Translations under genes and position numbers: made by a program
The notes under the pieces: generated by a model
Databases searched by the model: none
Told to the model about the DNA's origin: nothing
What the model saw: the letters and a program-made list of their open reading frames with translations, nothing else
Part shown: in pieces, positions 43,836 through 55,831 of the stretch
How the letters are laid out: the number at the start of each line of letters is the position of its first letter
How positions within the stretch are numbered: position 1 is the first letter of the stretch
Origin: an uncultured bacterium
GTDB taxonomy: Bacteria > Babelota > Babeliae > Babelales > Babelaceae
DNA length: 64,000 nucleotides
Direction of reading: 5' to 3'
Assembly: GCA_963713855.1 (NCBI GenBank)
Contig: OY970209.1
Span: forward strand, 32,001-96,000

Positions 43836-44339
43836 ATGGCAACGACACGAAGAACGACAGCACGTAAGACCACAAAAAGGAAGGCCGCAAGACCCGCTGC
43901 TACTAAAAGGAAAGCAGCTGTTCGCGCTGCGGCTGGCAGAAAAACAACTGCTAAACGAACAACTGCTAAACGAACGACAGCCAAAAGGACGACTGCTAGA
44001 AAAACTGCTGCATCTCGTTCAAGAACTGGTGCTGCACGCAGTAAATCAGCTGCAGCAAGATCTACAAGCGCACGAGCAGGAATACGCGCAGTCGGTAAGG
44101 CAAAAAAAGCAGCTGGTAAAACAGCAAAGCGCGCAGCACCTAAAGCTGGTGCTAAGCGTACAGCAGCCCGACGTGCAACAACAGCAAAAAAAGCAGCTAA
44201 ACGTGCGCCTGCACGACGAAAAACAATCCAAAAGCCATTGTTATCGGGACAGCTTCCTGAAAATGAGGAAACTTTTCCGGAGCATGAATCTGAAGGCACA
44301 AATATCTTCTCTTTTAGAAGAGGCGACTTTAATAGGTAG
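43836..44339 (+). CDS. Histone H1-like basic DNA-binding protein (Hc2/HctB-like composition)
   Basis: AAGGAG RBS; K/R/A/T-rich with (K)RTTA(K/R) pentapeptide repeats; short acidic C-terminal tail; terminator follows. Confidence 0.85.
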   Translation: MATTRRTTARKTTKRKAARPAATKRKAAVRAAAGRKTTAKRTTAKRTTAKRTTARKTAASRSRTGAARSKSAAARSTSARAGIRAVGKAKKAAGKTAKRAAPKAGAKRTAARRATTAKKAAKRAPARRKTIQKPLLSGQLPENEETFPEHESEGTNIFSFRRGDFNR

Positions 44340-46180: not shown

Positions 46181-48763
46181 ATGCTAAAATTGCTTATCAT
46201 TCTTTTAAGACCTCAGGTGCTCTTATTGGGGGCGTTGGGCTTTATCACCTCCATTTTCATTTTTCTGTTTTTAAAACTCATCACATTCAAATCTACAACA
46301 AACACTAAACATCTTCTGAGGTTTTATACCGCAATACTTGTCCTATGCGCTTTAAAAATAAGCCTGAGCTGGATGATACTTCTAATACTAGCTATTTTGC
46401 AAAACAATCATGCAAAAATAGCATTGCTAGCTTTCAATGTTAGACAGGCTTTTAGTATTATCGAATACCTCTTTATACCCCTTTTTGTTGACGCCCTTAT
46501 TCGACCAACTATCACCTTGAGCATAGGGGGGCTTAAAAAAATCCACTTTTTATTTTTAAGTATTTTGGCCATATTGTACCTGGTCGGGCAAAATATGCCA
46601 CAAACGGTAGACGTATCAACCTTTTTAATAGATTTTTACGGCATTGTTGTTCTTTTAGCTTCAAGCTATTTTTTGTATCGCTCAATAAAAAAAGAGTCAG
46701 CCATTCCGTTGGTTGTTAAAAAAGAGCTTACCACGCTCACTCGTAAGATTTTTTTTCCTTACGTACTTTCAAGCATTTTAGTAATGGTTTCTAGAGATTT
46801 ACCTTATAATGCTCTTTTTTTTAGTGCAGTTTTGTCTCTATTTATAAAGGCATATCTTTGGTATTTCTGCAAGAGCCGGATTATGAAACTTCCTTTCTTT
46901 ACCACTAAGCAAAATGCGCTATCGCACGTTTTTATTGAGGACCTAAATAAAGCCTTTGAGGGCTTAACACACGCTCTTAATATGAGCGAAATAGAACGCG
47001 TTACTAAACAATTTTTCCAAGACTCTTTCAATGTGAGTCCTTTAAACGTAAGCCTTCACATTAGATCCGCTCAAGAAACCTACCTTCAGCCTCAAATGAA
47101 TAAAAGGGAAAAAGAAGAACGCCACAAGATACTCTCTGCTTTGGAAAGCACCTTAGATTCTTCCGATTTAGAAGCTTTTCTAGAAAAAAACAAGATGCTC
47201 AAAAAAGATGATTTGGCATTCGCCTATTTTTATGAGTTAAAGTCGCAATTAAAAGTATATATTGATTTTCTTGAAACCATTAATGCTTCGTTTTTTATAG
47301 CCATTTACAACCAAAAACGCATTTCAGCATACCTTATCTTACGCGATACCTCTATAAATTGCGCTACTGGTAGCGCTGAAGGAGAAAAAATACTTCTTTT
47401 TACTGCCTACTTAGAACGCGTACTAACTTTTATGGAAACAATCGACCCACAAGCGGCTCTTAAAAAATACCAAGCATTAAAGCGCGAAACCCACTATCAT
47501 GCAGAAAAACTAGCGTGGTACGAGAGCATTATTGCAAGTATAAGTCCTGATAATCTAGCTTTCATGGGCGCTCTTTTGTATAACAACGATAAACTTTCGT
47601 ATCTAAACCAAGAGAGCGAAGAGCAAATAGGTATAAAACTAAGTAAATACTCAATATTTGCCGAAAATTGCACCTTCATAGCAAAAGAAGCACAAAATAC
47701 AGGAAGCCCAAAAACGTTGATCATCAAAGATGAAAGGGGTCGAGCTGTTAAGCTCAAAGCAACTCCATGCTTTCTTTTTGAATCAAAAGAAGCTATTGTC
47801 ACCGTACAGCAAACATTTTTATATCCGCTGCAAAATCACGAAAATCCTCTCTATGCACATTTAGATTGGAATATGATACTTCGCTTAGAAACCACGCAGG
47901 CTGGACAGCTTATAAATCAGGCTTTACCGGGGTCTAGTCCCGCCCTACTAGCGTTAAAAGTAAGCATTTTAAAAGCGGTACTTAGCCCAAAAGCAGTATG
48001 GATTGAAGCCCCAGGCATGGAACTCATGAAAGCGGCCGACATTATCTATAAAGCAAGCTCTAGGCCTTCAATGGCAAAGCTCAGCTTAAAAGAGCCAGAA
48101 AATAAAGAAGAAATTGCTGAAAAACTCTTTGGCTTAAATGCTTTCTATCGTTTACCTGGAGACTTACCGCTTCTTGAGGAAGTTGCTGATAATGGCATGC
48201 TATTAATTGAAAACATCCATCTTTTAAGCCGTGAGACCCAAGAAGCGCTCGCTGAAACTCTCAAATATGGATTTTTTAAGCCCCTAAAAAGCGAGCGCAA
48301 AATTAAGACTGAGATGCAACTCCTTGTATCAAGCTCATATAATCTTGAAACGCTTGTCCAAGAAAATCTTTTTTCTCCAGCTTTACTTGCAGAATTAACC
48401 CATATTTCTCTAAAAGCACCTTCAACATTTTCCACACAAGACATACAAGAGCTCCGAGAAATTGCCGCTTTTGGTGAGGAGGAATTACCAACATTTACCC
48501 TCGACGCAGTTCAAAATAGAGTGCACGCTATCCTACATCAAAAAGAACAAACTCAAGAATTTCATCCCGTTATGATAGACTCTAAAAAGCATGACAACCC
48601 AGCACTTGACCGTATACTTGAGAAAGGCAAAGATGCTCTTAAAGATAAAGAAGCTATGACCTTCCTTTGGAATACTTTTAAAAGTCAGGCAAAAATTGCT
48701 AGCCTCCTTAAAGTAAACCGCTCATCTGTGCATAAGCGATGTAAAGAATTCAATTTGAATTAG
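46181..48763 (+). CDS. Multi-TM protein with a degenerate sigma54-activator-like AAA+ domain and C-terminal Fis-type HTH
   Basis: About 7 hydrophobic segments; ADNGMLLIENIHLLSRETQEAL..G.F resembles the bEBP Walker B region; SQAKIASLLKVNRSSVHKR HTH. Confidence 0.7.
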   Translation: MLKLLIILLRPQVLLLGALGFITSIFIFLFLKLITFKSTTNTKHLLRFYTAILVLCALKISLSWMILLILAILQNNHAKIALLAFNVRQAFSIIEYLFIPLFVDALIRPTITLSIGGLKKIHFLFLSILAILYLVGQNMPQTVDVSTFLIDFYGIVVLLASSYFLYRSIKKESAIPLVVKKELTTLTRKIFFPYVLSSILVMVSRDLPYNALFFSAVLSLFIKAYLWYFCKSRIMKLPFFTTKQNALSHVFIEDLNKAFEGLTHALNMSEIERVTKQFFQDSFNVSPLNVSLHIRSAQETYLQPQMNKREKEERHKILSALESTLDSSDLEAFLEKNKMLKKDDLAFAYFYELKSQLKVYIDFLETINASFFIAIYNQKRISAYLILRDTSINCATGSAEGEKILLFTAYLERVLTFMETIDPQAALKKYQALKRETHYHAEKLAWYESIIASISPDNLAFMGALLYNNDKLSYLNQESEEQIGIKLSKYSIFAENCTFIAKEAQNTGSPKTLIIKDERGRAVKLKATPCFLFESKEAIVTVQQTFLYPLQNHENPLYAHLDWNMILRLETTQAGQLINQALPGSSPALLALKVSILKAVLSPKAVWIEAPGMELMKAADIIYKASSRPSMAKLSLKEPENKEEIAEKLFGLNAFYRLPGDLPLLEEVADNGMLLIENIHLLSRETQEALAETLKYGFFKPLKSERKIKTEMQLLVSSSYNLETLVQENLFSPALLAELTHISLKAPSTFSTQDIQELREIAAFGEEELPTFTLDAVQNRVHAILHQKEQTQEFHPVMIDSKKHDNPALDRILEKGKDALKDKEAMTFLWNTFKSQAKIASLLKVNRSSVHKRCKEFNLN

Positions 48764-50785: not shown

Positions 50786-52083
50786 CTATCGAGCAAGAGT
50801 TTTTAGTACATGGGCAATTGGGCTCGTCAATGATGAGGCAGCATTTGTGGTACCGCCTGTTACAGTAGTGGTGCCTGTGGCACTTGTGGCGCCCGTCGTG
50901 GTAGAAGGCGTACATCCTACAAGAGTAAATACTGTTACATCCGGTATGCCGCCATTTGCTAATGAACCATAATTAACAGTAACCAAGTATTGGCCCGAAG
51001 GTGAGAATGCTAGTCCCCAAGGATTTGTAGAACCAGCGGGTAATGGGTATGAGGTACCATCACTCAAGGTTCCGTCTGCCGCCACCGCAAACATCGTTAC
51101 ATCATTTGAGCCAGTAGAAGCGACTGAGACGCCCCCATTAGCAGTAACCAAGTATTCGCCAGAAGGTGAGAATGCCAGTGCGTAAGGATTTATAGAACCG
51201 GAAGGTAACGAATATGAAGTACCTGCGCTTAAGATTCCGCCCGCTTCCAACGTAAACACCGTCACTTGATTTGAGCCGAAATCAGCTGTTGCAAGGTATG
51301 TCCCGTTCGGTGAAAATGCTATTGAAGCCGGAGAAGAACCAAGAGGCTGACTAACAGTATTTCCCTGACCTGATAGCGTTCCCGTTCCTAGACTAAATAC
51401 CGTTACACCACTGGGGCAATTGCAGCAAGGGTAACAGCCGAAATCAGCTGTAACAATATATTTTTCATCATGGGAGAAAGCTAGCGAAGTGGGATTCGCG
51501 TCAACAATTGGTATAGCGGAACTTTGTGGACCAGATAAGACTCCCCCTGCTTCCACCGTAAACACTCCTATATCTGCCGCACCATGCGGACCAGCGCCAT
51601 CAGTATAAGCTACGTATGTTCCGGAAGGCGAGAACGTTACGAAGTTGGTTTGAGGGCTTGCTACTAAGCCGACATTGTATCAGCTACCGGCACTTATGGC
51701 ACCTCCAGCTCCAACCGTAAACATGGTTAAAGAGCAAGCAGGACTAATTGTGCCGCCACTAACGTCGTGACTAACAGCAGCTATGTATCCACCAGATGGT
51801 GAAAATGCTGAGAGACTATATCGGCAAGATAAGAGGGTAAAGGATACGGAGTACCAGCACTTAATGCTCCTCCTGATCCCATCGTAAACATTGTTATCTC
51901 GCTGGAACTGCCAATGGCAACGTAGGTGCCAGACGGCGAGAACGCAATTGAGTCAGCAAGAGAAGTACCAGATGGTAAAGGATACGATGTGCCTGATTCT
52001 AGAGAACAAACAGCGTCAGATTGTAAACTCACCATAAGAGGAGATAATGCGCAGATTAAATATGAAATCATGATAATTTTCAT
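50786..52083 (-). pseudogene. Disrupted secreted beta-propeller protein (AFSPSG repeats)
   Basis: Signal peptide at 52083; frameshift at (TC)3 near 51810-51815; in-frame TGA at 51680-51682; the same frame then joins ORF 50786-51565. Confidence 0.85.
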
Positions 52084-53059: not shown

Positions 53060-53365
53060 TCAGAATAAAAAGATTTCCTCATTAGGAAAGCCCATTTGTA
53101 ACTCTTTGCGCGCTATTTTTTCTCGATACCAGGGAAACTCGGAAAGCTCATCTACCTCTTTTTCAAGATCACTAATTTCAAACTCAAGTTGCTTTATCGA
53201 CTTTATAAGTAGCTCGTTTTCTAAAACTACTTCTTTGAGGCCCTTCGACCCGCGAGGTTTTATAATAAATCGCCAGCAAAAAAGAGTGCTTTCCAAAGAA
53301 AGAAGTACTGCGAGTATAAAAATTGTTCTCTTTTTCACGATCGGGTACCTTGTACTTTTAATCAA
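53060..53365 (-). CDS. ftsB: Septum formation initiator (FtsB/DivIC family)
   Basis: TM helix, coiled coil, EKIARKELQM..PNE. Confidence 0.75.
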   Translation of the reverse strand: MIKSTRYPIVKKRTIFILAVLLSLESTLFCWRFIIKPRGSKGLKEVVLENELLIKSIKQLEFEISDLEKEVDELSEFPWYREKIARKELQMGFPNEEIFLF

Positions 53366-53431: not shown

Positions 53432-55264
53432 TTATTCTATCGAAACAGATTTTGATAAATTACGAGGCTTATCTATAGGGTGCTCAAGAACAAGCCCTAT
53501 TTGATACATAAAAAATTGCATAAGTGCTGTCATAGCTATTGGAGCAAGAAGAGGGTCGACTGGCGGTATAATAAATGCTCTATCTGCAAGTCCTATGAGA
53601 TCATCTTGGCCAGAGAATGCAAACACAAGAAGTTTTCCAGATCGATTCTTCACTTCTTTAGCATTAATGAGAAGCTTTTGGTAAATAGTTCTGTGCAATG
53701 ATGAAAATAAGAACACAGGTACATCCTCATCCACCAATGCAACCGACCCGTGCTTGAATTCTCCCGAGTAACAAACATCTACAAAAAGGTATCCCATCTG
53801 CTTAAGCTTAAGAGCAGCTTCAAGAGCAAAGGGATATCCCATGTGACGACCGAGAAAAATGAAATGCTTATAATGGGCATATGATGGAGCAATGGTAGAA
53901 ATTATATGCCTTTTATATGACTCTAGGGCACTTTCTTGCACCTCAGCCGTTACAATTAAGTTTTGATAAGCAATTTCAACATCCCGTTGGGTAATAAGCT
54001 TTTTTTCAAAAGCGATCTCGTGGGCTAAAAGATAGAGCACTGCTAGCTGCGCCGTGAACGCCTTAGTAGAAGCTACCGAAACTTCAAGACCCGCCTGGGT
54101 CAAAAGAAACCCAGTCGCTTCTCGCACCATGCTGCTCGAAGCTACATTAGTCAATGCAAGCGTCGGTAATTCTAAAGCATTTGCGGCTCTTAAAGCCTCT
54201 AAGGTGTCCATCGTTTCTCCGGATTGAGAAACACCAATATAGAGGCTCCTTTTTTGCGGGAAAAATGGTGCATCCCGAAACTCAGAAGCTAGACATGCTC
54301 GCGCAGGTATGCGGGCGATTTCTTCAAAAAAGAAAGCTCCTATCGAAGCTGCATTCCAAGACGATCCACACCCGAACAAGTGTAATGACTCAATTTCGCA
54401 AACCGTTGATGGATCAATACCAATGCGTTGCCATAATGAATTACCCAGAAATTTGATAAAATGAACCGTGTCATAGATTGTTTTCTTTTGGTCGTACATT
54501 TCTTTGAGCATGAAATGCTCATAAGACCCTTTAGCAGCAGTTAATTCCTCAACATGCAAAGGCAGCGGCTGGCCAGTAAATGAATACAGTTCTATGCTCT
54601 CTTTACGAACAAGTGCAAAAGTTTCATCAGGCATAAAAACGACCTGTTGCGCCTTACCAGCAAACGAGAGCAGATCAGATGATACAAACATTTCGCTCTT
54701 GCCAACACCTATATATAAAGGGCAATGCTTTCGTGCAATAATAAGCGTATCTGGAAACTCTTGAAGAATACAGGCGATAGCATAAGCGCCTACAAGCCTT
54801 CCCGTTAAATCAACAAATGCGGCGCGTAAGCTCGTATGTGTCAAAAGAAGTGCTTCAAGTAAATGAGCTACCGTTTCGGAATGAGCTTGATCTTGAAATA
54901 TGTGACCCGTTTGTATGAGAAAGTCTCGCAGCGCATGATGGTTTTCAATAATGCCATTGTAGACAAGAGAAATTTTATTTGAGCAATCAACCTGTGGCGA
55001 GGCTTTAGCGTCTTCGAGTGGTAATCTGTGGGAAGACCAGCGGATATGTCCAATACCAATAGGCCCGTCTAGTAAAGACTGCTCAACTTTTTCAATAAGC
55101 TCACTTATACTTCCTTGTACTTTGCAAGCTGCAAGCGTCGCGTCTGTAGCATTTAAGCAGCCAAACCCACCAGCGTCATAGCCACGGTATTCAAGACGAG
55201 CTAAGCTTTCAATTATATGGGCTTTGCTCATCCCCGAACCTACATACCCAACTATCCCAGACAC
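53432..55264 (-). CDS. glmS: GlmS homolog with substituted catalytic residues
   Basis: Full GATase-II + 2xSIS layout (LEYRGYD, NGIIEN, SQSGET, VASTKAF, KHG, PRNLSKSV), but MSGIVG instead of MCGIVG and LKLKQM instead of LKLKEI. Confidence 0.85.
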   Translation of the reverse strand: MSGIVGYVGSGMSKAHIIESLARLEYRGYDAGGFGCLNATDATLAACKVQGSISELIEKVEQSLLDGPIGIGHIRWSSHRLPLEDAKASPQVDCSNKISLVYNGIIENHHALRDFLIQTGHIFQDQAHSETVAHLLEALLLTHTSLRAAFVDLTGRLVGAYAIACILQEFPDTLIIARKHCPLYIGVGKSEMFVSSDLLSFAGKAQQVVFMPDETFALVRKESIELYSFTGQPLPLHVEELTAAKGSYEHFMLKEMYDQKKTIYDTVHFIKFLGNSLWQRIGIDPSTVCEIESLHLFGCGSSWNAASIGAFFFEEIARIPARACLASEFRDAPFFPQKRSLYIGVSQSGETMDTLEALRAANALELPTLALTNVASSSMVREATGFLLTQAGLEVSVASTKAFTAQLAVLYLLAHEIAFEKKLITQRDVEIAYQNLIVTAEVQESALESYKRHIISTIAPSYAHYKHFIFLGRHMGYPFALEAALKLKQMGYLFVDVCYSGEFKHGSVALVDEDVPVFLFSSLHRTIYQKLLINAKEVKNRSGKLLVFAFSGQDDLIGLADRAFIIPPVDPLLAPIAMTALMQFFMYQIGLVLEHPIDKPRNLSKSVSIE

Positions 55265-55280: not shown

Positions 55281-55718
55281 TTAACGTTTTACAAACTGGA
55301 ATTTTCTTCGAGCAGCTTTTTGACCATATTTTTTGCGTTCTTTTACTCGGGCATCAACAGTAAGAAGGCCATGCTGTCTTAAAAGAGGTTTTAAATCTGG
55401 ATTAGAAGAGAGAAAAGCCCTTGCAAGCCCGAGTTTAACCGCGTCAGCTTGCGAGCAGAGTCCGCCTCCAGTTACATTCACTTCTACATCATATGAATGA
55501 GCGTGGGGAACGAGGCGTGATGGTATACTTGCCGCATCGCGTGTAACGTCCGTATCAAAATACACCTTATAGTCTCTCCCGTTAATCACCATTTTACCAG
55601 CACCACGTCGGAGCCAAACACGGGCGACCGAAGATTTTCTACGGCCAACCCCGTGTCCTAAAGATACAGGGCGCGTGGGAGCGGCTTGTCGTTTTGCTTT
55701 TGAAGGTTTAGCTTCCAT
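55281..55718 (-). CDS. rpsI: 30S ribosomal protein S9
   Basis: GRRKSSVARV, GGG..QADA, ERKKYG..ARRKFQFVKR. Confidence 0.97.
   Translation of the reverse strand: MEAKPSKAKRQAAPTRPVSLGHGVGRRKSSVARVWLRRGAGKMVINGRDYKVYFDTDVTRDAASIPSRLVPHAHSYDVEVNVTGGGLCSQADAVKLGLARAFLSSNPDLKPLLRQHGLLTVDARVKERKKYGQKAARRKFQFVKR

Positions 55719-55755: not shown

Positions 55756-55831
<76 letters not shown>

Follow-up and report, generated by a model that had tools for sequence, protein, structure and literature searches.

The glmS locus and its neighbourhood

The window, which is the whole stretch of 64,000 nucleotides analysed here, belongs to the genome (G000) of a protist-infecting bacterium, represented by a single contig of 1.52 Mb and rated 91% complete. 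The source names of homologs placed the organism in Ca. Babeliales/Dependentiae, which the accessible text of PMC4776705 describes as reduced intracellular parasites of eukaryotes. An open reading frame with a GTG start and no internal stops, coding for 610 amino acids, was located on the minus strand (Table 1); the plus-strand frame over the same interval was full of stops, and the strand had been left unstated in the earlier note. The product matched the glmS profile TIGR01135 with 540 bits (cut-off 418) and was aligned end to end with the E. coli GlmS chains 4amv, 2j6h and 1jxa (E about 1e-106). Foldseek matched its predicted structure (pLDDT 86.7) with 1jxa, a GlmS of E. coli, at a TM score of 0.82. 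An Ntn glutaminase domain followed by two SIS domains, a length of about 610 residues and a score above the TIGR01135 cut-off are those of the GlmS family, and no extra domain beyond this architecture was found in a domain search of the protein.

The gene order tadA-dksA-rpsI-glmS was conserved across the order. An ftsB gene immediately after glmS is confined to this genome and family f4, with a different arrangement in most relatives, and the link to ftsB drawn in the earlier note is incidental. A sigma-70-like site (55872-55845) just upstream of the tRNA-Thr gene was a consensus match only, such sites being no more numerous than in shuffled sequences. Neither a riboswitch nor a glmS ribozyme was found between 52000 and 58000, where the tRNA was the sole match.

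Some other genes were observed in the window. One (43836-44339, plus strand) encodes a repeat-containing protein of 167 amino acids rich in Lys, Arg, Ala and Thr, which resembles chlamydial histone-like proteins. Another (46181-48763, plus strand), directly upstream of the PBP2 gene, encodes a protein of 860 amino acids whose N-terminal part is hydrophobic and which weakly matches the AAA+ domain of sigma-54 activators. A beta-propeller repeat gene (50786-52083, minus strand) seems to be broken in two, with ORFs of 100 and 259 amino acids.

Table 1. Features of the glmS locus and of related loci (window positions unless a locus or contig is named; residues numbered as in E. coli GlmS)
Feature	Position	Strand	Evidence or remark
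ftsB/DivIC (PF04977), downstream neighbour	53060..53365	-	66 bases from glmS
Full-length GlmS pseudo-enzyme (predicted), 610 aa	53432..55264	-	Profile, alignment, model; Ntn glutaminase domain (about residues 1-240) and two SIS domains
Lys603, kept; minor tail changes A602>S, T606>S, V607>I	53450..53452	-	Alignment
KHG with ring-opening His504, intact	53747..53755	-	Alignment
Gln (CAG) replacing isomerase base Glu488	53798..53800	-	Alignment; common to query, P0002 and P0004
Phosphate-binding loop SQSGET (S347-T352), intact	54212..54229	-	Alignment
D123>H	54881..54883	-	Alignment; common to query and P0002
H97>Y, adjoining kept N98-G99	54959..54961	-	Alignment; common to query and P0002
Glutamine-binding loop, T76>S, G78>R, N84>K, H86>S	54998..55033	-	Alignment; residues 78-83 with pLDDT <50
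Ser (TCT) replacing nucleophile Cys1, right after the GTG start	55259..55261	-	Alignment; Cys in 144/148 other sequences
rpsI (uS9), upstream neighbour	55281..55718	-	16 bases from glmS
tRNA-Thr(CGT)	55756..55831	-	
Leader-bearing GlmS paralogs	L154, L157, L240, L242, L244, L246 (G173, G175, G235, G234, G233, G232)		
EamA/DMT transporter genes near murA	G000 C1:625183-626154; L253:4220-5119; L254:3059-3973		

Residue changes in the two active sites

Residue numbers follow E. coli GlmS and were taken from the alignment of the query with the E. coli chains. The changes were C1S, T76S, G78R, N84K, H86S, H97Y, T122A, D123H and E488Q, and the residues kept were R26, R73, W74, H77, N98, G99, S303, S347-T352 (SQSGET), K485, K503-H504 (KHG) and K603. 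The glutamine pocket (R73, T76, H77, H86, N98, G99, D123) was thus incomplete through T76S, H86S and D123H; we take D123 to be the ligand of the glutamine amino group, with H86 likewise involved in glutamine binding. The isomerase trio was also incomplete, with E488Q beside the kept H504 and K603. Of 148 further Babeliales sequences of GlmS, 144 had Cys1, 147 had D123 and 146 had E488. No in-frame alternative start codon was found upstream of the GTG.

The earlier note had read Ser at Cys1, Gln at Glu488, VYNG, kept SQSGET, KHG and C-terminal Lys, and an intact frame of 610 codons, all of which was confirmed by the alignment, and its case was strengthened by D123H and H86S, which it had missed. 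Within its HIRWSSH motif, T76S is a real change, but A75S is the usual Babeliales residue and hence no lesion.

The lesions were clustered. Of the invariant columns, 9 of 17 were changed at the glutamine site against 11 of 115 at other places (p 8e-5), while none of 18 was changed at the sugar-phosphate site, which did not differ significantly from the other columns (p 0.36); the column lists for both sites were compiled by hand from residue roles. Cys1 is the sole catalytic residue of the GlmS glutaminase, and Glu488, His504 and Lys603 are the isomerase residues, according to the available part of PMC9272926. From the residues, glutamine hydrolysis would be lost through C1S and the wrecked glutamine pocket, and sugar isomerisation through E488Q. 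Judged by residue loss and kept fold, the query is a GlmS ortholog predicted to be without synthase activity, i.e. a pseudo-enzyme.

Close relatives and constraint

The nearest protein, P0002, was 82% identical to the query and had H97Y, D123H and E488Q in common with it; because its start was called four codons further on, residue 1 falls outside the comparison. Eight further invariant-column changes of the query also recurred in P0002, so the changes do not represent strain-specific decay, which had been named as a refutation of the pseudo-enzyme reading. The only shared lesion in P0004 was E488Q. The same-genus genome G001 contained one glmS only, with other lesions (residue 1 lost, N98I and E351Q) and with E488 kept. 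The query pair, G001 and P0004 formed a clade with support of 0.92 and 0.77 in two FastTree trees. The closest TadA relative of the query genome was 87% identical, a similar level to the 82% of GlmS, and may come from the same organism as P0002.

Differences between the query and P0002 fell on 11 of the 150 invariant columns and on 95 of the 455 variable ones (p 7e-5). The invariant-to-variable ratio was 0.35 for this pair and 0.00-0.15 for 8 canonical pairs, from which constraint on the query pair is relaxed yet present, as far as protein alignments tell. A simulation of neutral point mutation, with indels uncounted, reached 21 changed invariant columns with an unbroken frame in 25 of 2000 runs. 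Codon comparison of G000 with G001 or G008 was saturated and its dN/dS unusable; evidence of selection is at the protein level for the query pair and comes from codons in the G208-L152 and f4 lineages described below. The sharing with P0002, the spared invariant columns and the clustered lesions bear out the claim that this pseudo-enzyme is under selection.

Recurrence across the order

A glmS match was found in 207 of the 261 genomes of the order. The gene was read in 76 of them, a non-random sample comprising 42 from two nearest-relative searches, 30 picked because of a low score or the lack of glmM, and 4 that hold two copies. A full-length chromosomal GlmS with at least one catalytic lesion occurred in 12 of the 76: G000 and G001; G208; four genomes of family f4; G174; and G138, G143, G157 and G158. 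G204 (tail lesions only), G052, G053 and G187, in which glmS was split, and the contig-end partials in G207 and G239 were kept outside this count. In G208 the lesions were C1S, W74L and E488K, all common to the metagenome locus L152; the f4 genomes had C1S, G174 was hit in the glutaminase site, and G138, G143, G157 and G158 in the isomerase site or tail. Replacement of Cys1 by Ser was thus seen in three separate lineages. A Cys to Tyr change at query position 184 was restricted to the two lineages without both catalytic residues (5 rows, two of which are the same G208 gene).

In neither tree did G208 and L152 group with the query clade, and on this placement the loss of C1 and E488 in their lineage is independent of that in the query. 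Their GlmS proteins were 67% identical, close to the values for TadA (68%) and RpsI (71%), and a pairwise codon model gave dN 0.217, dS 3.0 and omega 0.072. Omega was 0.022-0.025 in 3 unsaturated pairs of f4 C1S genomes, 0.045 (G157-G158) for the f11 forms that had lost K603 and the tail, and 0.021-0.033 in four unsaturated canonical pairs; 9 of the 21 pairs were saturated, including all three with G000 or G001. In the G208/L152 lineage a convergently oriented gene follows glmS, which together with the low omega argues that selection outlasts the loss of both residues and that ftsB polarity is no explanation there. As to the proposed check, conservation of Ser1 and Gln in a clade of low dN/dS, Gln recurs in P0002 and P0004 and the G208-L152 omega is low; the query's own comparisons were saturated.

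Across all 16 non-canonical proteins, 51 of 151 invariant columns were kept, including S303, S347, S349, T352, K485 and H504; at the sugar site the figure was 10 of 18 against 41 of 133 elsewhere (p 0.06). By contrast with these retained copies, no glmS match was obtained for some entire groups (f5, 0/14; f16, 0/7; g18, 0/3), so any second role would be dispensable there.

A scan of a species-genome collection for the E488Q/K pattern, which is narrow and would miss G208, returned two stretches, a Planctomycetia GlmS (L184) with E488Q as its sole key change and a contig-end fragment. A metagenome scan returned two loci, the pseudo-GlmS L152 and one canonical gene.

Amino-sugar pathway

No glmM ortholog was found in G000 or G001; of the family's 40 genomes besides G000, 37 had a match at E 1e-62 or better, with G001 among the 3 without. 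At the usual cdaA-cdaR-glmM operon site of G000 no remnant was found, only a clean gap after cdaA-cdaR. The pgi gene was also not found in G000 and G001. GlmU was of full length in both genomes, with 12 and 10 of 106 invariant columns changed, respectively, mainly in the uridyltransferase in G000 (L134:2506-3981) and in both domains in G001 (L135:2490-3941), and is a full-length relic in the query genus. The active-site lesions in G000 were R18L, G225N and N227T, where the numbering and roles of R18 and N227 are presumed. Further downstream, MurA was rated intact (2 of 139 invariant columns changed in G000), MurC was present above its cut-off, and the PBP2 gene lies inside the window.

Missing glmM alone is no proof of pathway loss, because canonical GlmS and GlmU persist in many glmM-less genomes and G000 holds a PgmG-type mutase that might stand in for GlmM, for which the accessible part of PMC6797236 offers a precedent. 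Where both proteins were inspected, 10 of the 12 genomes with GlmS lesions and 3 of the 37 with canonical GlmS had a truncated or damaged GlmU, though kin are not independent and these amount to about four lineages. Several Babeliales families had a uridyltransferase-only GlmU with the uridyltransferase motifs kept (L227, L229-L233, L251, L252).

G000 probably imports its amino sugar from the host, given that pgi and glmM were not found and GlmU is damaged while MurA and MurC persist; the damaged uridyltransferase site in the query genus suggests import of UDP-GlcNAc itself. No UhpT/GlpT-type antiporter was found in G000. Its transporters included three of the NTT family and five EamA genes, one of them linked to murA; this EamA/DMT gene adjoined murA in G008 and lay 6-12 kb away in G000 and G001 (Table 1). 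From this linkage it is a candidate importer of UDP-GlcNAc or a precursor. In five genomes searched, nagA (0/5), a GlmR/CofD-family gene (0/5) and eukaryote-type UDPGP (0/5, with no match in the control genomes either) were not found.

G005 (L141; single contig, 95% complete) had a canonical glmS and no match for glmM, glmU, murA or murC. Canonical GlmS residues were kept without a complete downstream route in both G005 and G172, which fits a second role of the protein.

Putatively exported paralogs and candidate partners

A second canonical GlmS, encoded away from rpsI, carried a signal-peptide-like leader that, by eye, ended just before Cys1 (Table 1). The six leader-bearing proteins formed one clade across two families (support 0.998), and in G173 and G175 the chromosomal copy had C1S. 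Going by the leader, these paralogs are likely exported, and could possibly raise host hexosamine flux.

A homolog of the diadenylate cyclase CdaA lacked DGA and RHR, which we take to be the motifs of this cyclase, in 6 of 6 aligned sequences (L239:1375-2205, which is G000 C1:688164-688994; L237; L238), and this divergent type matched in 136 of 191 genomes. By its motifs it is a candidate for a second widespread pseudo-enzyme. As an obligatory partner of GlmS it was rejected, being present in 13 of 13 glmS-less f5 genomes and not found with this profile in G005 or f11. A complex prediction for GlmS with GlmU residues 1-350 scored 0.01, which is evidence in neither direction.

Proposed role of the retained protein

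The account that we consider rather probable is that synthase activity has become dispensable in this host-dependent Babeliales bacterium and that a non-catalytic role keeps the protein. With the eukaryotic host as the lineage's source of UDP-GlcNAc or a late precursor, synthesis of glucosamine-6-phosphate would become dispensable, and the chromosomal glmS ortholog would cease to make it. Selection on the protein is evident from the comparisons above; through a second role it would be kept folded and presumably dimeric. The dead GlmS might bind a hexose 6-phosphate without turnover and relay its state to a partner, and loss of Cys1 may, speculatively, have been favoured as it stops futile hydrolysis of glutamine.

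As to the form of this role, a sugar-phosphate-binding regulator or scaffold is put forward tentatively as the most likely. Binding of a phosphate sugar is favoured because S303, S347, S349, T352, K485 and H504 were kept in all 16 non-canonical proteins, and would be the best candidate; given the weak enrichment, a ligand-independent scaffold is about as plausible. Against sugar-phosphate binding speak the f11 forms, whose omega is low although K603 and the tail are gone. The sugar-phosphate sensor of the earlier note accordingly holds in that the sugar site is intact, not in that the site is significantly better kept than the rest (p 0.36 in the query, p 0.06 over the 16). With nearly even chances, Babeliales GlmS may have an unrecognised moonlighting function, the regulation of envelope synthesis or of division through a bound ligand, which is exposed whenever catalysis is shed after the switch to host amino sugars; the exported intact paralog may move the synthesis outside the bacterium.

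Slow decay would explain the lesions otherwise: the purpose of the enzyme was gone once the host supplied amino sugars, and the gene survives through ftsB polarity or through selection against misfolding of a highly expressed gene product behind rpsI. The position of glmS between these two genes, the relaxed constraint in the query pair, the different lesions of different lineages, the absent or split genes in other genomes and the GlmU relic in the query genus are what it would predict. But polarity would preserve the frame and not the residues, and invariant columns were spared; the convergent gene in G208/L152 makes deletion free, yet omega stayed at 0.07 over a dS of about 3; and glmM was removed cleanly from its operon in G000. 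Decay of this kind is therefore unlikely.

Somewhat less likely again is a changed chemistry, in which Ser1 would act as Ntn nucleophile on an amide other than glutamine, or the SIS part would perform a partial reaction without the enolising base (ring opening or anomerisation through H504, or Schiff base formation through K603). An N-terminal Ser is used by some Ntn hydrolases. The threefold appearance of Ser1, the kept N98-G99, R26, R73, H504 and K603, and the tyrosine at position 184 of the doubly lesioned lineages agree with such a chemistry. It sits badly with G001, which has no residue 1 and carries N98I in addition, with the uncompared residue 1 of P0002 and with the poorly ordered glutamine loop of the model, and SIS deaminases require Glu for enolisation (PMC10201695, in the part accessible).

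The regulatory subunit of a true GlmS suggested by the earlier note is very improbable. The dimer-forming SIS part is intact and two f4 genomes have C1S and canonical copies together, but no second glmS was found in G000 by tblastn to E 10 or with the TIGR01135 profile on its single, 91%-complete contig, nor in G001; as the sole glmS of its genome, the query would not be such a subunit, and the canonical second copies elsewhere carry the leaders of likely exported proteins. A sequencing or assembly error, for which one base change each would suffice for C1S and E488Q, has a negligible chance, since P0002, a separate protein, has H97Y, D123H, E488Q and eight other invariant-column changes as well.

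As an antibacterial target, GlmS has long been studied and has been assumed to be an enzyme only. No natural catalytically dead GlmS was found in the literature searched, whose coverage leaves out most subscription journals. A doubly lesioned natural GlmS under selection in separate lineages would provide a ready test for a second function. Annotation pipelines call such proteins active, as the query passes the equivalog cut-off, and metabolic models of the phylum would be misled. The parallel lesions would represent the steps by which these parasites leave amino-sugar synthesis to their hosts; an importer for UDP-GlcNAc or GlcNAc-1-P is predicted from them.

Comparison with known systems

The query is like bacterial GlmS (TIGR01135; 1jxa, 2j6h, 4amv) in domain order, length, fold (TM 0.82), orthology, sugar-phosphate site, H504 and K603, and differs from it by the replacement of Cys1, of Glu488 and of half the glutamine pocket, and in that the pathway enzymes up- and downstream are missing or damaged. 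Non-catalytic SIS sensors exist in the glucokinase regulatory protein and the RpiR family. RapZ is described as a regulator of the amino-sugar pathway. By analogy the query may work like the non-catalytic SIS sensors; the likeness to them and to RapZ would be one of working only, since the query has no HTH and has the full GlmS architecture.

The C1A mutant of E. coli GlmS (PDB 3ooj) was obtained in complex with glucose-6P and glutamate, as given in the accessible part of its record, so that sugar phosphate is still bound after removal of the nucleophile, a loss which the query shares. That protein is a laboratory mutant with Glu488 intact, unlike the query, which is natural, doubly lesioned and under selection. 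The deaminases GlmD and NagB-II (NF041128, NF046059) resemble the SIS part of the query, their sugar-phosphate site working without a glutaminase, but they keep the catalytic Glu (PMC10201695, as far as accessible) and lack an Ntn domain. The query scored 82 and 72 bits for these models against cut-offs of 580 and 430, and with scores so far below the cut-offs, no SIS-only architecture and no Glu, identity as such a deaminase was rejected.

For Rickettsia, import of GlcNAc-1-P is predicted and a uridyltransferase-only GlmU is described in the available part of PMC5615194 (for the structure of GlmU, see the accessible part of PMC10087520). This is like the Babeliales, for which a host-supplied peptidoglycan precursor is likewise predicted and in several of which a uridyltransferase-only GlmU recurs. 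Unlike Rickettsia, the query genome keeps glmS as a putative pseudo-enzyme, and the uridyltransferase site of its GlmU is damaged as well.
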